Assembly (NCBI GenBank): GCA_964417635.1
Contig: CAYQIY010000009.1
Span: forward strand, 24,675-88,674
DNA from: an uncultured Pseudomonadota bacterium
GTDB lineage: Bacteria; Bacillota; Sulfobacillia; JAUYEF01
Direction of reading: 5' to 3'
DNA: 64,000 nucleotides
The stretch's first letter is position 1. Each line of letters starts with the position of its first letter. The notes under the pieces are model-generated. The model was not told the DNA's origin. It saw nothing but the letters and a program-made list of their open reading frames with translations, and did no database searches. Position numbers and translations under genes: made by a program. Shown in pieces: positions 28,861-58,030 of this stretch.

Positions 28861-29829
28861 TTGCATCTTCTGAGTCTCTGCCCTATGACGAAAAAGAGCA
28901 GTGTGTGCATGGGCACGCTCGTAACGCAGCGTGTGTACGGTGTATTTGCGCACAGAGCAATAGAGTGCTGTCAGAGGCTCTTTGAGAGCCTTGAATCTGA
29001 GATGAGTGTGTTTGTCCCCTCAAGCGACATATTCATGCTTAACGCGTCCGCTGGAAAAGGGCCGGTCAAGATCTCTCCCCGAAGTGTCGAAGTGCTCGAG
29101 CTGGCCCAGCGGGTTTCGGTGCTTTCGTCGGGCGCCTTTGACGTGACCGCCGGCGCATTCGTGAACCTATGGAGAACCGCTCTGGCTGAGAACCGAGTAC
29201 CGGATGCTTCAGAAATAGCAGTTACAAGCCGGTTGGTGGACTACCGCAAACTGGTACTTGATAGCAAGCACTCCACCGCACACCTTAAGATACCCGGACA
29301 GTCTGTAGACTTAGGCGGCATCGCCAAAGGATATGCAGCACGGCTCGCACGGGAGACGTATCAGACGTACGGAGTCAAGTCCGCAGTGCTCGACCTCGGC
29401 GGAGCAGTGTTGTTCGTCGGCAGACGTGCTCGTAGTTCGGAGTGGGTAGCGGGAATCCAGCACCCGGCAAAAGAACGCGGTGCGTGTTTTGCGTGTGTAT
29501 CGGTTGTGGATAAGTGCGTGGTAACGTCCGGCGGGTATGAGAGGTACCAGTTGCACGATGGCATAAGGTATCACCACATTATAGACCCGTCTACCGGCTA
29601 CCCTTCAAACAGCGACCTTGTGTCGTGCAGCATTGTGTCCCACGACCCCGTGTGGGCAGATGCGCTTTCAACAGCATGTTTCGTGCTCGGCTCGGAAAGG
29701 GCCATCCACCTAGTAGAGTCCATTGAAGACACACACCTTATACTGCTTACTTCAAATAATGAGGTCTACGTCAGCCCGAGCCTGCGCGACAGTCTTAGAC
29801 TGCTCGATGCCGATATGCGGCTCATCTGA
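28861..29829 (+). CDS. apbE: FAD:protein FMN transferase (ApbE family)
   Basis: 'MGTLVTQRVYG', 'DLGGIAKGYAA', 'HHIIDPSTGYP'. Start uncertain (TTG 28861 or ATG 28885). No convincing signal peptide. Confidence 0.8.
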   Translation: MHLLSLCPMTKKSSVCMGTLVTQRVYGVFAHRAIECCQRLFESLESEMSVFVPSSDIFMLNASAGKGPVKISPRSVEVLELAQRVSVLSSGAFDVTAGAFVNLWRTALAENRVPDASEIAVTSRLVDYRKLVLDSKHSTAHLKIPGQSVDLGGIAKGYAARLARETYQTYGVKSAVLDLGGAVLFVGRRARSSEWVAGIQHPAKERGACFACVSVVDKCVVTSGGYERYQLHDGIRYHHIIDPSTGYPSNSDLVSCSIVSHDPVWADALSTACFVLGSERAIHLVESIEDTHLILLTSNNEVYVSPSLRDSLRLLDADMRLI

Positions 29830-30883
29830 CCCGCCGCTCTAGATCGCGCGTCGGCTCGTCTACGAGCGACGGCAGTATGACGTCCGTATGCCGAGCAACA
29901 TGCGAAACTACCTCTTTGTTCACAAGGTCATCCGGAATGCTTCCCGTAACCGCCGCGAGCAAGTTTGCCACCGCCTTCTCTGCCATTTTACGCCTTGATT
30001 CAAGTGTCGCAGAGCCTATGTGAGGCAGCAAGACTGTATTGTCTAAGCCAGTTAAGGGCTCGGATATATCCACAGGCTCTGAGTCGTACACGTCAAGACC
30101 GGCAGCCCGGAGCTTCTTGGTAAGCAGAGCTTCATACAGAGCGTGTCTATTCACGACAGCCCCTCTACCCACGTTTAGCAGCACACACGTGCGCTTCATC
30201 ATGGCTATTTCGCGCCTGCCGATTAACCCTCTCGTATGCGCGTTCAAGGGTAGGACTACCATCACAAAATCCGAGGTGCGGCAGAGTTCATCGAGCGACA
30301 CGTGTTTTGCACCAACACGCCTTTCGGCTTCATGCCTTCTGACCTTATCCCAGTAGAGAACATTCATGTCAAAACCTTGTGCTCTTCTGGCAACAGCAAG
30401 TCCTATCCTACCGAAACCCATAATGCCGAGAGTCTTAGCGTGCACGTCGACGCCCACCATGAATCCTGGCGACCAAGCCTTCCATCCGCCTGCTCGCAAC
30501 ACGCGGTCTGCCTCAGGAATGCGTCTCGCACACGCAAGCAACAAGCCGAATGCCAAGTCGGCAACCGCCTCTTCTGATACTCCGGGAGTATTGCACACCA
30601 TCACACCATGAGCGGTACAAGCGTCTACGTCGATGTTGTCGTACCCAACAGCCATGTTCGCCACGACTCTAAGCCGGGGTGAACTACGCAGCAGGTGTTC
30701 ATCCACCGTATCAGTTAGCATGGTGAGTAGCCCTTCTGATCGGCTGGCGAAAGACAGAAACTGGTCTTGGGGCACAGGCGTATGCTCATGAGGCCAATAG
30801 TGCGTATCGCAGAACTGCTCTAGCGCTTCGAGCAAATCTGCTGGAAGCAATCTGGTCACATATACACTCGGACGCACGCTCAT
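29822..30883 (-). CDS. D-isomer-specific 2-hydroxyacid dehydrogenase (glyoxylate/hydroxypyruvate reductase-like)
   Basis: 'LGIMGFGRIGLAVARR' NAD fold, 'NVGRGAVVN', 'PHIGSAT'. ATG 30883 chosen; the ORF-track TTG is at 30892. Confidence 0.85.
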   Translation of the reverse strand: MSVRPSVYVTRLLPADLLEALEQFCDTHYWPHEHTPVPQDQFLSFASRSEGLLTMLTDTVDEHLLRSSPRLRVVANMAVGYDNIDVDACTAHGVMVCNTPGVSEEAVADLAFGLLLACARRIPEADRVLRAGGWKAWSPGFMVGVDVHAKTLGIMGFGRIGLAVARRAQGFDMNVLYWDKVRRHEAERRVGAKHVSLDELCRTSDFVMVVLPLNAHTRGLIGRREIAMMKRTCVLLNVGRGAVVNRHALYEALLTKKLRAAGLDVYDSEPVDISEPLTGLDNTVLLPHIGSATLESRRKMAEKAVANLLAAVTGSIPDDLVNKEVVSHVARHTDVILPSLVDEPTRDLERRVR

Positions 30884-30946
30884 TCCCCCCAACTAAGGAT
30901 GCATGTTCTAGTGTTCCTCACGTTGCAGAAGAATAAGCCGTGCACT

Positions 30947-31711
30947 CTAAACGCTCGCGTTCTGAGCATCCTTCAGTTTCTGTTGGTGCCGCATGACGAT
31001 TTCGATTCGCTCTGGGATTGAAATCCTCGATGATACTCCGCTTCCCCCAAGACATCCACCCGGACAGCCGAGCACCTCGTAAAACCCGGGAGCAAGGTTG
31101 GCCGCGTTCTCCAGCAGACGTCTTGAACATTCGCTTCCTGCAGCATCGCTCACAAGAAGCGCCATATATGTCCAGAACGGGGGTTCTGCGTCAAAGCCTG
31201 AATCCGACACATGCCGCCACGCGTTCTGTTCAGAGAGCCAGTCGGATAGCTGCTCAAACGTGACTACCGCATCGGCCGCGCCTTCGTTTTCCGGAAGCGA
31301 AGCCTCATACGCCTTGTGTACGCACGGACTGAAGAACACCACCGACGCACCGCTCCCAAGCCTGCTTCTAAGGCGCCTCGAATGCCAGGTTGCGGGCGAC
31401 GGCACCCGCGACAACAGCGACTCAACGTGCGGGTACTCTTCTCGGACAATCCTGACTACCTTTGGACAGCAAGCAGATATCTGCACGGTATGCTGAGACC
31501 GTTCGGCACTTGCCCGCATCTGCATGATCTCAGGCAACACAGCATTAGTCGGTTCAACCAGCCGAAAACCTAGCGCCTTGAGCGCGCTGGGCAGTTTCTC
31601 ACGTTCGTCATCTCCAAAATGCGCGACAAATGACGGAGCTACACTGGCTGCCACGGGAAACGCCGCCCTAAGCAGCCTCTTCGCTACGGCAAGTCCTGGC
31701 GCTTCCACCAA
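30947..31711 (-). CDS. [FeFe]-hydrogenase large-subunit C-terminal (H-domain)-like protein, minimal 254-aa form
   Basis: 'SVAPSFVAHFG', 'ISACCPKVV', 'FSPCVHKAYE' and 'EVLGCPGGCLGGSG' match the three H-cluster Cys motifs in order. TTG 31711 / GTG 31708 lie 5-8 nt after the GGAGG formed by the upstream gene's terminal Gly-Gly codons. Confidence 0.65.
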   Translation of the reverse strand: MVEAPGLAVAKRLLRAAFPVAASVAPSFVAHFGDDEREKLPSALKALGFRLVEPTNAVLPEIMQMRASAERSQHTVQISACCPKVVRIVREEYPHVESLLSRVPSPATWHSRRLRSRLGSGASVVFFSPCVHKAYEASLPENEGAADAVVTFEQLSDWLSEQNAWRHVSDSGFDAEPPFWTYMALLVSDAAGSECSRRLLENAANLAPGFYEVLGCPGGCLGGSGVSSRISIPERIEIVMRHQQKLKDAQNASV

Positions 31712-31712
31712 T

Positions 31713-31985
31713 CTAACCTCCGAACAGTGGTGAGAACACTTGTATTACATCGGCTTCTTTTAGCACATACCCTTCGTCTATCCTGTGGCCTTTTATTGCG
31801 TACACGAAACAGAACTTCTCGCCGCTGAACCTGATGTTCTCAAGCGCAGATCGAAGCACGGGTTCAAGTGCGTATATTACCTCTTCAAGGCAACCGGCTG
31901 TTGAACCAGGGGCCATCTCTATCTCGTGCGTTTTTTGATTCGCCCATCCCGAAAAGGGCGGTTCAAAGCTAACCGTTACGCGCAG
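31713..31985 (-). CDS. MoaD/ThiS-like ubiquitin-fold protein ending in Gly-Gly
   Basis: C-terminus 'VIQVFSPLFGG'. The in-frame upstream codons encode the expected first beta-strand ('RVTVSF'). AAGGAGG lies 8 nt before CTG 31985. The ATG-only ORF is 31713-31916. Confidence 0.6.
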   Translation of the reverse strand: MRVTVSFEPPFSGWANQKTHEIEMAPGSTAGCLEEVIYALEPVLRSALENIRFSGEKFCFVYAIKGHRIDEGYVLKEADVIQVFSPLFGG

Positions 31986-31998
31986 TTCAGAGCCCTCC

Positions 31999-32232
31999 TT
32001 ACTTCGCCAACCAGCCTCTTACCTGTTCTTCACTCGGAACCTTGCCCTCGAGTTTCTTGACCCCATCGATGATAACCGCAGGAGTCATCATAACCCCGCG
32101 CTCAACAATCTCGCTCAGGTTCGAGACATGAACCACTTCTGCATCGATGCCTGTCTTGCTTACTGTGTCCCGGATGATCTGTTCTACCTTCCTGCATTTT
32201 GCACATCCCGTGCCGAGCACTTCGATTCGCAT
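31999..32232 (-). CDS. Thioredoxin-fold 'redox-active disulfide protein 2'-like
   Basis: 'MRIEVLGTGCAKC' CxxC at the N-terminus, about 77 aa. ATG 32232 lies 6 nt after GGAGGTG. Confidence 0.8.
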   Translation of the reverse strand: MRIEVLGTGCAKCRKVEQIIRDTVSKTGIDAEVVHVSNLSEIVERGVMMTPAVIIDGVKKLEGKVPSEEQVRGWLAK

Positions 32233-32256
32233 GCTACACACCTCCGTAGTTATGGT

Positions 32257-33426
32257 CTATCCCACTATCGTGCCGTACAAGAATCCGGCTAACGTTGACA
32301 TAAGCGACACAAGCAGCACGTACGTGGTCGTCTTTTTCGGCCCAAGCACGCTGTTTATTACGAGCATACTGGGCAGGCTGAGCGCAGGGCCTGCAAGCAA
32401 GAGCGCGAGTGCAGGACCTTGCCCCATCCCCGAGCCGAGCAAACCCTGCAATATCGGAATCTCCGTAAGCGTGGCGAAGTACATGAACGCACCCAGCACG
32501 GACGCGGCGAAGTTTGCCATAAGCGAGTTTCCGCCCACTACCATGCTCACATACCTTGAAGGGATAAGTCCTGCATCAAGCCCCGGACGCCCCATAAGCA
32601 GCCCGGCTGCCAGCACGCCTCCAAAAAGCAGCGGCATAATCCGCTTGGCAAAATCCCACGTCGAGTCTTTCCACTCTGCGAGTTCTTCTCTGGCAAACCA
32701 CGACCTGATCATCCAGCCTAGCGCCAGCAGAAGCGCTCCAACCAGATACCACTTGATCAAGAACACATCGTAGAAGAAACCAATGTTCTCAGCAGGCTTG
32801 CCCCACGCTGCGAACACGAGTATACCCACCAGTACGGCAAAGAACGCACCTGTCTGGCCGAGACTGCGCACAGTCTCTTCAACCTGTTCATGTTCGTGTG
32901 CTTTTAACCGGTCATCTTCCTCGTGCCTGAATATGTGGCTCATGAGCAGGCCAATCACAACCGAGAATACGATTGCGCCCAACGCTCTAGCAAGCCCTAT
33001 CTGCCAACCGAGCACACGTGCGGTCATTATTATGGCGAGCACGTTTATGGCTGGCCCCGAATACAAGAAAGCGCTCGCAGGTCCGAGCCCTGCGCCGCGC
33101 TTGTAGATGCCCATGAAGAGCGGCAGAACCGTGCAAGAACACACTGCCAGCACACTGCCGGATACTGCACCTACGGCATACGCAACCCACTGCTTTGCAC
33201 CTCTACCCAGGTACTTCATGACGGAACGCTGCGAAATGAAGTTCTGCATCGCACCTGCTATGAAAAATGCCGGAATGAGACAGAACAACACATGCTCGCG
33301 TGCATATTCCTGCAGCATGTGCAGCGCCTCAAGCACCGCGCCGCCTACTCTCGGGTCGCCAAGCGGAGCGAAGTAGGCTGTGAGAAAAACCGCGATTATG
33401 ATAAAGAACGTGCTGAGTTCGGACAA
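32257..33426 (-). CDS. DUF318/YraQ-type permease (ArsP-like putative metalloid/thiol permease)
   Basis: About 10 TM helices, 'SVLAVCSCTVLP' motif. Conserved arsR-permease-thioredoxin-like gene order. Confidence 0.7.
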   Translation of the reverse strand: MSELSTFFIIIAVFLTAYFAPLGDPRVGGAVLEALHMLQEYAREHVLFCLIPAFFIAGAMQNFISQRSVMKYLGRGAKQWVAYAVGAVSGSVLAVCSCTVLPLFMGIYKRGAGLGPASAFLYSGPAINVLAIIMTARVLGWQIGLARALGAIVFSVVIGLLMSHIFRHEEDDRLKAHEHEQVEETVRSLGQTGAFFAVLVGILVFAAWGKPAENIGFFYDVFLIKWYLVGALLLALGWMIRSWFAREELAEWKDSTWDFAKRIMPLLFGGVLAAGLLMGRPGLDAGLIPSRYVSMVVGGNSLMANFAASVLGAFMYFATLTEIPILQGLLGSGMGQGPALALLLAGPALSLPSMLVINSVLGPKKTTTYVLLVSLMSTLAGFLYGTIVG

Positions 33427-33432
33427 CGCATT

Positions 33433-33732
33433 TCACTCCTTAGGCATCGTCTGGCAAGACTCGGCGCACTTCCCTTCGAAGACTGCATCGAGACATCTGA
33501 TGAACTGGTAAACGCACGGCATCTTAATCTCATACGTAACGTTAAGCCCGTCTTTGGAGCTGCTGAGTATTCCGCTTGCCTTCATTAGCCCGAGGTGTCG
33601 GGATATGGTTGACTGGTCGTACGGCAACCTTTCCACAAGCTCGCACACGCATTTGGGGCCTTCAGTGGCGAGTATCTCGACTATCTTGAGCCTTGTTTCA
33701 TGGCCGAGCGCCTTAAATACGTTTACTTTCAA
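33433..33732 (-). CDS. arsR: ArsR/SmtB-family metalloregulator
   Basis: 'FKALGHETRLKIVEIL..CVCEL..STISRHL'. TTG start 7 nt after GGGAGGG. Confidence 0.85.
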   Translation of the reverse strand: MKVNVFKALGHETRLKIVEILATEGPKCVCELVERLPYDQSTISRHLGLMKASGILSSSKDGLNVTYEIKMPCVYQFIRCLDAVFEGKCAESCQTMPKE

Positions 33733-33764
33733 CGTATGTCCCTCCCGTTCAACACTACATGCTT

Positions 33765-33793
33765 ATATTACAATATATGCATATAGTAGTCAA
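33765..33793 (-). promoter_or_regulatory. SigmaA-like promoter with embedded 12-bp palindrome (candidate ArsR operator)
   Basis: Minus strand: TTGACT-17 nt-TAATAT. The spacer contains the perfect palindrome TATATGCATATA (33774-33785). Confidence 0.55.
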
Positions 33794-33795
33794 CC

Positions 33796-34863
33796 TCATT
33801 TCGTACCGACATGCGGGGGAGGAAACCAGTGTTTGGTGCGGTTGGCAAAGGCCACTAAACTGAGCATGAGCGGTACTTCCACAAGAACCCCCACGACCGT
33901 TGCGAGCGCTGCGCCCGAACCGAGACCAAAGAGCGATATAGCGACGGCAACTGCGAGCTCAAAGAAATTGCTCGCGCCTATCATGGCGGCTGGGGCGGCA
34001 ACAGTACGATCCACCTTCCACGCTCTCGCCCAGAAATACGCTATCCCAAAGATTAGGTACGTCTGTATGCTCAGCGGTACCGCTATCAGTAGGATGTGAA
34101 GAGGATTGCTTACTATTGTTTCACCCTGGAAAGAGAACAAAATCACGAGCGTGGTAAGCAGTCCCATGATGGCAAAAGGTTTTAGCCTCGGCAGGAACTG
34201 TTGCTTGAGCCACTCTTGCCCGTGCGTGCGGACGAGTCTTACCCGGGTGATGTAGCCCGCTATGAGCGGGATAACAACGTAGAGCACTACAGACATCACA
34301 ATGGTATCGTATGGCACGCTAAGTTCGGCCAGCCCCAGTTGAAACACCACTATAGGCGCGTACAGAAAGAGCAAGATTATGTCATTGACGGATACTTGTA
34401 CCAGAGTGTGTGCAGCGTTGCCCTGGGTGAGATAACTCCACACAAACACCATGGCGGTGCACGGTGCGGCGCCAAGCAGTATCGCGCCTGCAACATACTG
34501 CTGACCCAAGTCGGCAGCGATCCACGGAGCGAACACAACTCGCAAGAAAAACCACGAGATGGCCAGCATTGTAAACGGTTTGATCAACCAGTTCACAACC
34601 AACGTCACAGTCAGTCCTTTAGGCTGACGAGACGCGCGCACAATACTGCCTAAGTCTATCTGCACCATCATTGGATAGATCATGAGCCAGATGAGAACGG
34701 CCACAGGCACCGACACTTGGGCGTACTCCCATCTGCTGAGAATTCGCGGGAACGAGGGGAACACTAGACCTATCAGCACTCCAAGCGCGATGCATAGCGC
34801 CACCCAGACGCTCAGATACTTCTCAAACGCTCCTAGTCCACTGCCAGATTGTGTGTCTGCCAT
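33796..34863 (-). CDS. acr3: Arsenite efflux permease, ACR3 family
   Basis: '[20 protein letters not shown]' N-terminus, 10-TM BART-type sequence. Start lies 3 nt after the arsR stop. Confidence 0.85.
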
Positions 34864-34866
34864 CGA

Positions 34867-35208
34867 CTATCTCCTTTCGGCTTCTGTACCACATGGGTCA
34901 ACCATGGGTATGTATGGTTCGGGCTCTGGCGCTCCGATTAGTTTCCGACACTCCCGGATTATCTCATTGACCTCTTGAGATGACAGGCTATAGAACACAT
35001 AGGCACCTTTACGGTAACATTTCACTATCCCCGCACGTTTCATCACAGCCAAATGCTGCGAAATGTTGGGTTGTGTCGCTTCGAGCGCACTAAGAATCTC
35101 GCATACGCACTTCTCTCCCGTATGCAGCATATGCGCTATACGCAACCTTAACGGATGCCCAAGCGCCCTCAGCGCCATGGCGGTATCGGTGTCGTCCGGC
35201 ATGTGCAT
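34867..35208 (-). CDS. arsR: ArsR/SmtB-family metalloregulator
   Basis: 'ALGHPLRLRIAHML..CVCEI..PNISQHLAVMK'. Confidence 0.85.
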   Translation of the reverse strand: MHMPDDTDTAMALRALGHPLRLRIAHMLHTGEKCVCEILSALEATQPNISQHLAVMKRAGIVKCYRKGAYVFYSLSSQEVNEIIRECRKLIGAPEPEPYIPMVDPCGTEAERR

Positions 35209-51625: not shown

Positions 51626-52984
51626 ATGTACCTTACACAACTCTACACCCCCGGACTGGCTCACCTATCGTACGTTATAGCAGGCACCAAGGAGTGTATA
51701 GTGATCGATCCGTCGCGAGATGTCGACCGCTACTTCAAAGTAGCCGAAGACTACGGAATGCCGATCACCACGGTGATTGAAACCCACCTGCACGCAGATT
51801 TCGTATCTGGTCACGTTGAACTGGCGCACAGAGCAGGTGCACGAATTTACATGTCCAAAACGGCCAATGCAGCGTTTCCACACGTAGCGCTTTCAGACGG
51901 TGAGCAGTTCGAGATCGATAATCTCAGGTTTGTGATGCTTGACACACCCGGCCATACTCCGGAAGGTTCTATGTTCATCGTCTCCGACCTCTCGCGTGGC
52001 GATGAACCTGCATTGATGTTTTCCGGTGATACACTGCTCGTAGGCGATGTCGGAAGACCTGACCTGTTTCCAGATATCAAGCGTGAGCTCGCAGAAAAGC
52101 TATACAACAGCCTCAGAAGACTAAAGCAGTTCGGGCCGCACGTGGAAGTCTACCCGGCACACGGCGCCGGTTCTTTGTGTGGCAGAGCACTGTCTGCAAA
52201 GCTCTCAACCACGCTCGGTACTGAGCAGATGTACAACTACGCCCTAAAGATAGACTCGCTATCTGAGTTCATTGAGGCGCTTCTTCAGGGCATGCCAGAA
52301 GCACCTGACCATTTTTCACGCTGCTCGGAGATAAACAGGCGAGGCCCTGTCTACACAGGTGAACTTGCGCCACCCAGGCCACTTACGCCGCTTGAGTTTC
52401 ACAAAGCTGCAACTGAACACGTTATTGTCGACTGCCGTGACCAACTCGCTTTCGCAGGAGCTCACGTACCGGGCTCGTATAGCCTGAGTCTTAGGGGCAA
52501 CTTCGCCACGTTCTCCGGCTGGGTGCTTCCACCCGAAAAAAGCGCACTGCTCGTTACCGAGACCGAAGAGCAGATACACGAAGCACTGGTCGGCCTGAGG
52601 CGAGTCGGCATCGATAACGTTGTCGGCTACCTGAAAGGCGGCATGACCGCATGGGCAAACAGCGGACTCGAGGCCGCCCACTTAGATAGCATATCTATAC
52701 CGAAACTGCGTGAAGCCGCGCAAGGCAGTGATGTAGCCGTAATCGACACGAGACTCGTAAGCGAATGGGAGTCAGGCCACATAGAAGGTGCTGTTCACAT
52801 ACCGGCTCCAGACTTGAGGCACCACGATGTGCCAAGCGCTCGAAAGCTCATGGTCATCTGCAGCACTGGCAACCGCTCCATTCTGGCCGCAAGCCTGCTG
52901 AAGCAGAGAGGATACCACAACGTAGTGAACGTCATCGGCGGAATGACTGCCTGGCAGGCCGCGGGCTATCCGCAAGTGAAATGA
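51626..52984 (+). CDS. MBL-fold persulfide-dioxygenase-like enzyme fused to two rhodanese domains (CstB/Blh-like)
   Basis: 'ETHLHADFVSGH' and 'TPGHTPEG' MBL motifs. C-terminal rhodanese loop 'ICSTGNRS'. Confidence 0.8.
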   Translation: MYLTQLYTPGLAHLSYVIAGTKECIVIDPSRDVDRYFKVAEDYGMPITTVIETHLHADFVSGHVELAHRAGARIYMSKTANAAFPHVALSDGEQFEIDNLRFVMLDTPGHTPEGSMFIVSDLSRGDEPALMFSGDTLLVGDVGRPDLFPDIKRELAEKLYNSLRRLKQFGPHVEVYPAHGAGSLCGRALSAKLSTTLGTEQMYNYALKIDSLSEFIEALLQGMPEAPDHFSRCSEINRRGPVYTGELAPPRPLTPLEFHKAATEHVIVDCRDQLAFAGAHVPGSYSLSLRGNFATFSGWVLPPEKSALLVTETEEQIHEALVGLRRVGIDNVVGYLKGGMTAWANSGLEAAHLDSISIPKLREAAQGSDVAVIDTRLVSEWESGHIEGAVHIPAPDLRHHDVPSARKLMVICSTGNRSILAASLLKQRGYHNVVNVIGGMTAWQAAGYPQVK

Positions 52985-56143: not shown

Positions 56144-58030
56144 GTGGCAAACAACAGGAGCATAATCCGTGTAGACCTTTCGCAAAGAAGCATACATGTT
56201 GAAGAGCAAAGCGATATATTCTTCCGCAAGTACCTCGGCGGAAAAGGCGTAGCAGCGTACTACTTGCTGAACGAAGTGCCGAAGAACGCCGATCCTCTTG
56301 GACCTGAAAACGTTCTGGTGTTCTGCACAGGCGTGCTCGCAGGCACGAGCCTGCCTGGTTTTTCGCGCGCGGTGATAGCAGCCAAGTCGCCGCTTACAGC
56401 AGGGCACGCTGAGAGCGAAGTGGGCGGCTCATGGGCAGCAGAACTTAAGCGAGCCGGATACGATGCGCTCATAGTCAGCGGCAAGAGCGACACTCCCGTG
56501 TGCATAGAAATCTGCGACGAAAGACTTGAACTGGTTGACGCTTCTTCAGTATGGGGGCTTAGTACGCAGAAGACAGAAGACGGGTTGAGAGACCACTTTC
56601 CGCGCAAACCTGCTGTCATGAGCATCGGGCCTGCAGGCGAAAACCTGGTCAAGTTCGCATGCATAATGCAAGGAGAACGCAACGCAGCCGGTCGAGGTGG
56701 GCTTGGAGCGGTGATGGGCTCGAAGAATCTTAAGGCTGTGGCAGTCTGCGGAACCCACAAGGTGAAGTTGCACGATGAATCTCAGCTAAGTTCGATAACG
56801 AAATGGTTCGCGCAGAATTACAAGCAAAACGCGCCCAGCGTTGCGCTGTTCGAATCGGGCACAGCCGCCATAATACCTGCACTTCAGGCATCGGCTATGC
56901 TACCTACAAGAAATTTTGCCCGCGGCCAGTTCGAGCACTGGAAAGACCTCAGCAGGCTCGGCGGAACCTGGGACTACGAAATGGTTGGCAAGAGTTGCTG
57001 GGCATGTCCAATAAGGTGCAAGCGCTCTTTCAAACTTGATGAGATAGAGACGCTTGAAGACAGCGTTGCCGGCCCCGAGTACGAGACTATAGGCTCATTT
57101 GGGTCCAACCTGTGCATAGGCGATCTGATGACCATCGTCAGGGCGAACCACTTCTGTAACGAGATGGGACTCGATACGATTTCGGCAGGGGTTGTGCTGG
57201 GCTTTGTGATGGAGTGCGTGGAAAACGGGCTAATACAAGACGAAGAATTGCTCAAGTTAAGGCCTGAGTTCGGTAATGAGCAGTGTGTACTGCCGTTACT
57301 TGAACTCATAACCTACCGCAGGGGCTTCGGTGATACTCTCGCAGAGGGTGTAAGGGCAGCAGCAGAGCAGATCGGCGGCGATGCGCACAGGTTCGCGATG
57401 CACGTAAAAGGCCAAGAGTTGCCGATGCATGACCCGAGGGGCAAGGTCAGCGTCGGAATTGGCTATGCTGTGGCAGAACACGGCGCCGACCACATGACAG
57501 CGATGCACGACACGGGGCTCGTCAAAGAGGGTATGTATCCGCTCGTCACCTGCGCTCCACTCGGCCTGTACGAGCCAACTCCGGCACTGCTTCTCGACGA
57601 AGCCAAGGTCAGGCAATACTACTACCTGCAGACATGGTGGGATGCCTTGAAGTGTCTGGGCGCGTGCTTTTTCTGCGTGGCTCCAAGAGGACTGCTCCCG
57701 ATAAACTACGTGGTTGATGCAGTACGAGCTGCCACAGGCTGGGATTACTCATTGTTTGAGGCGCTAAAATCAGGTGAGCGAGCCGCTGCTATGGCGCGCA
57801 GTTTTAACGTTCGCGAAGGGCTGGAAGCCGAGTCGGACTGGCTTCCCGAAAGGCTCTTCGAGTCTTCGGGCGAACAGGGCCAAGGCTACGAAGGCATAGA
57901 CAGAACAAGATTTGCCGAGTGCATAGCGCTCTACCGCAAGATGCGGGGCTGGGATGAGCACACATCTGTACCTTCTCGTGCCAAACTTGCTGAACTGGAC
58001 ATCCTGTGGGCCTGGGAGTTGCTCAAGTGA
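56144..58030 (+). CDS. aor: Aldehyde:ferredoxin oxidoreductase (tungstopterin AOR family)
   Basis: 'IIRVDLSQRSI', 'GGKGVAAYYL', 'EYETIGSFGSNLCI' and 'GLDTISAG' blocks. 628 aa. Confidence 0.9.
   Translation: MANNRSIIRVDLSQRSIHVEEQSDIFFRKYLGGKGVAAYYLLNEVPKNADPLGPENVLVFCTGVLAGTSLPGFSRAVIAAKSPLTAGHAESEVGGSWAAELKRAGYDALIVSGKSDTPVCIEICDERLELVDASSVWGLSTQKTEDGLRDHFPRKPAVMSIGPAGENLVKFACIMQGERNAAGRGGLGAVMGSKNLKAVAVCGTHKVKLHDESQLSSITKWFAQNYKQNAPSVALFESGTAAIIPALQASAMLPTRNFARGQFEHWKDLSRLGGTWDYEMVGKSCWACPIRCKRSFKLDEIETLEDSVAGPEYETIGSFGSNLCIGDLMTIVRANHFCNEMGLDTISAGVVLGFVMECVENGLIQDEELLKLRPEFGNEQCVLPLLELITYRRGFGDTLAEGVRAAAEQIGGDAHRFAMHVKGQELPMHDPRGKVSVGIGYAVAEHGADHMTAMHDTGLVKEGMYPLVTCAPLGLYEPTPALLLDEAKVRQYYYLQTWWDALKCLGACFFCVAPRGLLPINYVVDAVRAATGWDYSLFEALKSGERAAAMARSFNVREGLEAESDWLPERLFESSGEQGQGYEGIDRTRFAECIALYRKMRGWDEHTSVPSRAKLAELDILWAWELLK

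Follow-up and report, generated by a model that had tools for sequence, protein, structure and literature searches.

The window analysed here is a 64,000-nucleotide (nt) stretch of contig CAYQIY010000009.1 (G+C 54%), in which an ArsR-type operon on the minus strand closes with two small genes: one for a MoaD/ThiS-type beta-grasp protein, which we call UBL (ubiquitin-like), and one for a compact, stand-alone H-domain protein of the [FeFe]-hydrogenase type, which we call mini-Hyd. We find that mini-Hyd and UBL make up an obligate, co-translated and conserved module, and that this pair is an accessory module of arsenic-resistance (ars) operons in many anaerobic lineages, being strongly enriched in ArsR-controlled operons. 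Both protein superfamilies and the type of operon are known; it is the conserved gene pair for which we found no earlier description. As an explanation of the whole we propose, at slightly worse than even odds (a probability of about 0.45), that this paired and coupled ars-operon module forms a 1:1 complex, whose chemistry, either low-potential redox or sulfur transfer, would serve to detoxify arsenic.

A compact H-domain gene and its obligate partner

The two genes and the motifs that identify mini-Hyd are as follows (CpI is the reference [FeFe]-hydrogenase).

31713-31985, minus strand: UBL, MoaD/ThiS-type beta-grasp protein of about 90 residues with the C-terminus PLFGG; probable CTG start at 31985-31983
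30947-31711, minus strand: mini-Hyd, compact stand-alone H-domain protein of 254 residues from TTG 31711, or 253 residues from GTG 31708
31721-31716, minus strand: GGAGGT, the Gly-Gly codons of UBL, which also look like a Shine-Dalgarno sequence for the H-domain gene
31463-31477, minus strand: motif L1, SAC81C82P; C82 corresponds to CpI C300 (a cluster ligand) and C81 to CpI C299 (the proton-relay Cys)
31313-31336, minus strand: motif L2, FFSPC130VHK133; a cluster-ligand Cys and an invariant Lys corresponding to CpI K358
31043-31078, minus strand: motif L3, EVLGC216PGGC220LGG; a Cys pair corresponding to CpI C499 and C503

Loci were gathered by exact-protein look-ups and by a scan of GTDB species genomes, and their open reading frames (ORFs) were searched with local hidden Markov models. 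The UBL gene adjoins the mini-Hyd gene in all 16 independent lineages with enough flanking sequence, versus none of 142 loci of the long, group C relatives described below (Fisher p = 3e-22); a MoaD-like gene is thus always found with the compact clade and never with the long forms. The two genes always share a strand and are usually either overlapping, by 4-16 nt, or no more than 30 nt apart. In the loci that we numbered L092, L093 and L095 the stop of one gene and the start of the next have 4 nt in common, in L008 the overlap is 16 nt, and the gap in the window is 1 nt. UBL stands directly upstream of mini-Hyd only in the window lineage; in nearly all others the H-domain gene comes first, and L180 has the order UBL-Fer4-miniHyd. 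An earlier note on this DNA, made from the sequence alone, had taken the Gly-Gly codons of UBL for the ribosome-binding site of the H-domain gene, and their placement agrees with this, GGAGGT lying 5 nt before TTG 31711 and 8 nt before GTG 31708. The loci come from bacterial genomes and metagenome-assembled genomes (MAGs), mostly of Bacillota and also of Ignavibacteriales, and no natural fusion of H-domain and UBL occurs among 152 proteins.

Word-indexed homologue searches were nearly empty for mini-Hyd and UBL (for mini-Hyd they returned, besides the query, a single relative of 47% identity), and a full HMMER scan was therefore used. Among 1.84 billion representatives this found 1072 relatives of mini-Hyd, the best of which align end to end and have 230-275 residues, while the next have about 570. 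These long relatives combine Fer4, H-domain, FeS (PF04060) and PAS domains and are thus of the group C sensory type. In a neighbour-joining tree of 133 H-domains, a rough one without bootstrap support, all UBL-linked proteins fall into one clade of 31 representatives, none of them of 450 residues or more; they stand alone and range from about 230 to 300 residues. Thus the mini-Hyd proteins are one clade, next to the group C sensory-type [FeFe]-hydrogenases. An N-terminal ferredoxin domain (2x[4Fe-4S]), with neither FeS nor PAS domain, is fused to the clade members L015 (165-1091), P0023 and P0046, which retain the MoaD-like partner, and a separate Fer4 gene adjoins the pair in L009 and L180. 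Immediately upstream of the pair in L009 (702-4043) are genes for a 618-residue pyridine-nucleotide disulfide oxidoreductase and for a 479-residue Fer4 and H-domain protein that is conventional-hydrogenase-like. Among the matches listed in a metagenome scan there were long sensory forms only, and no mini loci.

The window protein matches PF02906 (Fe_hyd_lg_C) with 98.6 bits against a cut-off of 22.1, the alignment in one stretch covering only profile positions 3-172 of 245. A PDB profile search aligned the short-form profile to CpI 214-425 and 468-514, with C130 on CpI C355. From this alignment to CpI it follows that the four Cys are the H-cluster ligands and that K133 is the pocket Lys. C82, C130, C216, C220, K133, P129, H110 and an AP(S) motif are invariant in an alignment of 21 short forms, and the residues of the 2Fe pocket (Lys, Pro, Ser, Glu) are conserved equally in the mini clade and in the long sensory forms. 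What the short forms lack, relative to a full-size H-domain of about 350 residues, is a piece of some 40 residues (CpI about 426-467) and the C-terminal 'small-subunit' segment, the alignment ending near CpI 520. The AlphaFold2 model of mini-Hyd (pLDDT 95.6, pTM 0.92) has only [FeFe]-hydrogenase H-domains as top Foldseek matches (E = 1e-13), with query-normalised TM-scores of 0.75-0.78 to CpI, HydABC and CbA5H. At the proton-relay position (31469-31471, minus strand) the window protein, P0002 and P0017 have Cys, in the form SACCP, and most of the clade has Ser. A mechanism like that of ferredoxin:thioredoxin reductase was considered and rejected, the H-domain having no conserved Cys beyond the four ligands.

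The UBL ORF offers no ATG, GTG or TTG start that yields the full fold, and the public gene calls give 67 residues from ATG 31916. In an alignment with 13 homologues this ATG falls behind the first beta-strand (RVTVSF), which the 67-residue calls therefore lose. The start is likely CTG 31985, 8 nt after the strong Shine-Dalgarno sequence AAGGAGGG (32000-31993). Taken alone, the window UBL stays under the family cut-offs (ThiS, PF02597: E = 0.046, 14.7 against 22.5 bits; TIGR01687: 20.2 against 49.5 bits), whereas a family profile built from 14 partners matches the MoaD structure 1vjk with E = 7e-13, as well as MoaD/ThiS proteins and SAMP1, and 12 of the 14 members have a Pfam ThiS match. Neither UBL nor mini-Hyd is covered by a curated NCBIfam model. 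The final Gly of the family is invariant, and most members have a second Gly before it, the window protein ending in FGG. The alignment contains no conserved Cys, for which reason UBL as a cluster-binding beta-grasp ferredoxin was rejected. A second MoaD-like copy, ending in QPTLGG, is found in L177 (4421-4681; the same as L023 5394-5669), just upstream of acr3 and 2.3 kb from the H-domain/UBL pair.

The pair in arsenic-resistance operons

In the window the pair follows three genes with which it makes up an ArsR-type operon (30947-33793), just downstream of an arsR-acr3 operon.

33433-33732, minus strand: arsR, ArsR/SmtB repressor of 99 residues with a TTG start; As(III)-type CVC motif in PKCVCEL
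32257-33426, minus strand: ArsP_1-family permease of 389 residues (PF03773, 251 bits); vicinal Cys pair VCSCT
31999-32232, minus strand (alternative start 32241): ArsE/MTH895-type thioredoxin-like protein of 77 residues from ATG 32232; CAKC motif

The two hallmarks of an ars operon, an ArsR with an As(III)-binding Cys motif and an arsenical efflux permease, are thus both present. Profile searches gave 50.7 bits for HTH_5 and 85.1 bits for NF033788 (cut-off 55) with ArsR; the thioredoxin-like protein scored 91.7 bits for Thioredoxin_3 and 90.7 bits for TIGR00412, 'MTH895/ArsE family' (cut-off 62). These matches and the motifs bear out the earlier note, which had described five minus-strand genes here and identified each of them correctly. 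Its statement that they are tightly packed is also right: from arsR to mini-Hyd the gaps are, in order, 6, 24, 13 and 1 nt, the 13 nt requiring that UBL start at CTG 31985, and the thioredoxin stop codon runs into the Shine-Dalgarno sequence of the UBL gene. A sequence scan found no internal terminator in the five-gene operon.

The association with arsenic genes is not peculiar to this genome. Of 14 independent mini loci with at least 7 kb of flank, 8 have a homologue of the window's ArsP, ACR3 or thioredoxin_3 protein (Trx3) no more than 8 kb away, versus 1 of 142 long-form loci (p = 3.6e-9), and homologues of the ArsP_1 permease are present in 11 of the mini-Hyd loci gathered. In three lineages the pair is enclosed by ars genes of its own strand, at distances of 17-130 nt. 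Thermoanaerobacterium sp. DL9XJH110 (L020) has arsR-miniHyd-UBL-acr3-arsC, with a trx3-arsP-arsR cassette 2 kb off; a Thermoanaerobacterales MAG (L082) has arsR-arsD-arsA-arsA-x-miniHyd-UBL...arsC; and a Kamchatka Bacillota MAG (L011) has arsR-usp-acr3-miniHyd-UBL-marR-arsM-arsN2, its arsM and arsN2 scoring above curated cut-offs. Elsewhere the order is arsP-trx3-miniHyd-UBL (L013/L092) or arsR, Trx3-Trx-DsbD_TM-DUF2703-UBL-Fer4-miniHyd (L180); trx3, fer4, arsR and arsP adjoin the pair in L009 and an ArsD fragment adjoins it in L177; and on the short contig of the closest homologue an ArsR-like gene begins 45 nt downstream. Directly upstream of the ars operon of L082 (3339-4974) are genes for a SufC-like ABC ATPase and for SufBD-like proteins. 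The idea that the pair replaces ArsC was rejected, L020 and L082 carrying an LMWP-type arsC in the same operon.

The earlier note had placed the last two genes outside every ars or moa context familiar to it. As a statement about genomes this is wrong, the pair recurring in ars operons; as one about publications it agrees with our search, which found no description of the pair in ars operons in the literature on ars genes, hydrogenases, MoaD/ThiS and PF02906. The refutation that it had named, an adjacency found in this genome only, is excluded by the same recurrence in other lineages. Of the two things that it had wanted to see in the neighbourhoods, co-occurrence of the H-domain and MoaD-like genes holds in 16/16 lineages; a constant position beside arsR or the permease does not hold, other neighbours being genes for aldehyde:ferredoxin oxidoreductase (AFOR), for methylenetetrahydrofolate reductase (MTHFR) and for thiamine salvage.

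Upstream of the five genes we place the following features.

33765-33793, minus strand: predicted sigma-A-like promoter, TTGACT (33793-33788), a 17-nt spacer and TAATAT (33770-33765)
33785-33774, minus strand: perfect 12-nt palindrome TATATGCATATA in the promoter spacer
34867-35208, minus strand: arsR2, 113 residues, CVC motif
33796-34863, minus strand: acr3, arsenite efflux gene, 355 residues (TIGR00832, 394.9 bits against a cut-off of 282.8)

The promoter and the palindrome in its spacer are as the earlier note had them. A 23-nt imperfect inverted repeat (33747-33794) covers the promoter site, and the palindrome is likely to be the ArsR operator. Because the promoter scan as a whole was at chance level (4 sites against 3.1 expected), the promoter call draws only on the position of the site in the 63-nt gap. 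The end of the arsR2-acr3 operon falls 3 nt before the -35 hexamer, and nothing resembling a terminator intervenes; read-through is therefore possible, and the seven genes (arsR2-acr3 and the five) may be expressed as one read-through unit.

Beyond the operon, the next gene on the strand of the H-domain gene, 54 nt after it and without an intervening terminator-like site, is for a D-2-hydroxyacid dehydrogenase (29822-30892, minus strand), and an ApbE flavin transferase gene (28861-29829, plus strand) is convergent to it; neither is a companion of the pair in other lineages. Further off in the window are genes for AFOR, a tungsten/molybdopterin enzyme (56144-58030, plus strand, about 25 kb away), and for a metallo-beta-lactamase-rhodanese fusion (51626-52984, plus strand, about 20 kb away). 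An Rfam scan of the window gave no match. A homologous contig from the same species as the window encodes Spore_YtfJ, which makes a spore-forming member of the Bacillota the likely source.

What the pair may do

We propose that mini-Hyd and UBL form a 1:1 complex in the style of MoaD-MoaE, in which the flexible Gly tail of UBL would enter the cofactor pocket of the H-domain, beside the [4Fe-4S] cluster; a full H-cluster could be present where HydEFG maturases exist. The H-domain protein would be a low-potential redox catalyst fed by H2 or by ferredoxin, the latter fused or encoded by a neighbouring gene; this suggestion is made because the pocket is conserved, ferredoxin fusions occur and Fer4 genes are adjacent. 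Two versions can be imagined, both speculative. The complex might convert an arsenical into a form that ArsP or Acr3 exports, such as a thiolated species, in which case the sulfur donor would be a UBL thiocarboxylate made by a housekeeping E1 (activating) enzyme. Alternatively, it might give electrons to the ArsE/thioredoxin-type thiol system.

Several observations weigh against this proposal or parts of it. The pair lies outside any visible ars context in about a third of lineages: AFOR and Fer4 genes adjoin it in L008 and L176, the thiamine-salvage genes thiM and thiD are near it in L019 and L093, and MTHFR genes stand beside it in some lineages. The arsC genes of L020 and L082 speak against the pair being simply a substitute for arsenate reductase. 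The Pfam tables of 12 annotated loci show no gene for ThiF/MoeB, MoaE, ThiG, CysM, rhodanese or JAMM beside the pair; the remark in the earlier note that no E1 lies nearby is accurate, by the Pfam table of L002, over some 10 kb on the upstream side and 8 kb on the downstream side. Likewise no hydE, hydF or hydG was seen in any flank examined, whole genomes not having been searched for HydEFG. Both the promoter and the co-transcription of all five genes are predictions from sequence, as are the complex, its bound cofactor, the thiocarboxylate and the activity. Lastly, the UBL tail varies: it ends in AG in L033, L176 and L180 and in FG in L178, and in L022 (3395-3676) the GG is followed by QML, three extra residues that a processing protease would have to remove should a free tail be required.

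L033 8712-8978: UBL with an AG tail
L176 7765-8097: UBL with an AG tail
L180 3101-3364: UBL with an AG tail
L178 901-1167: UBL with an FG tail

A variable penultimate Gly is unusual among E1-activated sulfur carriers. The AG and FG tails speak against every member being a strictly E1-dependent carrier. Thiocarboxylate or thiolated-metalloid chemistry, which is speculation, is somewhat weakened by them.

A more definite form of the proposal is that the pair is a hitherto unrecognised two-subunit metalloenzyme of arsenic metabolism, which would join an H-cluster-type site, or an open face of the [4Fe-4S]H cluster, to a protein-borne C-terminal (thio)carboxylate, and which might perform either the enzymatic thiolation of an arsenical or a hydride-type reduction to a volatile or exportable species. 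We offer this tentatively and consider it rather doubtful.

That mini-Hyd is instead a true ultraminimal [FeFe]-hydrogenase, with a full H-cluster with which it makes, consumes or senses H2, seems to us unlikely, though it is the rival that survives best. UBL would then be a structural small subunit, a role which the AG and FG tails suit better than that of a carrier, and the link to ars genes would come not from sulfur chemistry but from redox sensing or from electrons supplied through H2. Conservation in the pocket, the equivalent of CpI K358 included, equals that in group C; the window protein retains the equivalent of the proton-relay Cys C299 of CpI; a 479-residue HydA-like gene stands beside the pair in L009; and archaeal enzymes of group E, averaging 286 residues and sister to group C, bind the H-cluster and are active (PMC11216029). 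Set against these points are the Ser that most of the clade has at the proton-relay position and the flanks devoid of hydE, hydF and hydG. Moreover, a structural subunit needs neither a near-invariant C-terminal Gly nor a MoaD-type tail, and no reason is offered for the presence of the pair in ars operons.

In the cytosolic iron-sulfur assembly (CIA) pathway clusters are carried by H-domain homologues that lack hydrogenase activity, and the pair might by analogy be a carrier and repair module like Nar1/CIAO3, its H-domain holding a transferable [4Fe-4S] cluster for which UBL supplies sulfur, and be induced in order to mend Fe-S proteins damaged by arsenite. Control by ArsR suits such a stress-repair role, as do the SufC- and SufBD-like genes just upstream of the L082 operon. 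However, that Suf link is seen in one locus only, the 2Fe-pocket residues are conserved as strongly as in sensory hydrogenases, and the ferredoxin-fused members indicate electron transfer; we regard Fe-S repair as improbable.

It is less probable still that the pair has nothing to do with arsenic and serves, for example, sulfur transfer for the tungsten/molybdenum cofactor or for thiamine, having hitch-hiked in metal-resistance islands. The AFOR and Fer4 neighbours in L008 and L176, the closeness of thiM and thiD in L019 and L093 and the AFOR gene 25 kb off in the window would fit this, but these AFOR and thiamine genes run opposite to the pair, whereas the pair in L011, L020 and L082 is set among same-strand ars genes at short distances, and the enrichment over controls is far from chance.

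Finally, that mini-Hyd is an ArsD-like arsenite chaperone or sequestration protein, whose four Cys bind As(III) instead of a cluster, is very improbable: the invariant Cys do cluster in space and arsD and arsA (L082) or an ArsD fragment (L177) adjoin the pair, but conservation extends to the whole H-domain fold and to pocket residues other than Cys, ferredoxin fusions exist and UBL is left without a role.

Known relatives and significance

The nearest sequence relatives of the mini clade, the group C (HydS-type sensory) [FeFe]-hydrogenases, share with it a compact H-domain that has the four Cys, motif L2 in its Gly-Pro-Cys form and an invariant His, Lys and Glu. The mini clade differs in its missing domains (N-terminal ferredoxin, C-terminal FeS and PAS), the window protein consisting of the H-domain only. 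Nar1/CIAO3 is comparable as an H-domain homologue with a function other than H2 catalysis; however, it is eukaryotic and larger, has an extra N-terminal cluster and no ubiquitin-like partner, and its 2Fe-pocket residues are not known to be conserved.

Closest in size are the archaeal ultraminimal hydrogenases of group E (Greening et al. 2024, PMC11216029), which are described as averaging 286 residues, active after artificial maturation and sister to group C, and as the subject of a submitted patent application. Like mini-Hyd they are very small stand-alone H-domains with a single [4Fe-4S] cluster and an H-cluster site. They differ in coming from DPANN archaea and in being described as fermentative enzymes, and the text that we read mentions neither a ubiquitin-like partner nor an ars context (PMC11216029). 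The mini clade is bacterial and, at 230-275 residues, smaller; this comparison is one of descriptions only, and the two may be the same clade.

On the side of UBL, the pair resembles MoaD-MoaE, ThiS-ThiG, CysO-CysM and TtuB-TtuA, in each of which a small beta-grasp protein with a flexible C-terminal Gly tail is translationally coupled to a neighbouring partner gene; in TtuA, moreover, a [4Fe-4S] cluster accepts the thiocarboxylate of the carrier. It differs from these sulfur-carrier systems in that the partner is an H-domain and not MoaE, ThiG or a PP-loop enzyme, that no E1 is adjacent and that the penultimate Gly varies.

As for the operon, the first three genes of the window and the arsR-acr3 operon upstream are standard members of known systems, the former of the arsR-arsP-arsE (thioredoxin_3) organoarsenical cassette. 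An arsR-arsP-ArsE(PF13192) operon is induced by arsenic in Pseudodesulfovibrio mercurii ND132 (bioRxiv 10.1101/2022.10.17.512643). Known ars operons differ from that of the window in the last two genes, a 2018 review of ars genes having neither hydrogenase nor MoaD, and so no H-domain/UBL pair, among those it lists (PMC6205960).

The finding has three implications, all of them directly testable with two small proteins that should be easily expressed. The first is for arsenic biology, where it would add a new and widespread accessory pair to the ars operons of strict anaerobes (Thermoanaerobacterales, other Bacillota, and MAGs from hot springs and digesters). Thiolation, reduction and volatilisation of arsenic in these organisms are poorly understood at the level of enzymes. 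For hydrogenase research, it identifies a bacterial H-domain clade of 230-275 residues, smaller than archaeal group E, with an obligate ubiquitin-like partner such as, to our knowledge, no described hydrogenase group possesses; if the pair does prove to be an arsenic metalloenzyme, no natural H-domain scaffold smaller than mini-Hyd would be known from bacteria. For the biology of sulfur carriers, lastly, it would provide a protein of the MoaD/ThiS family with an entirely new kind of partner.

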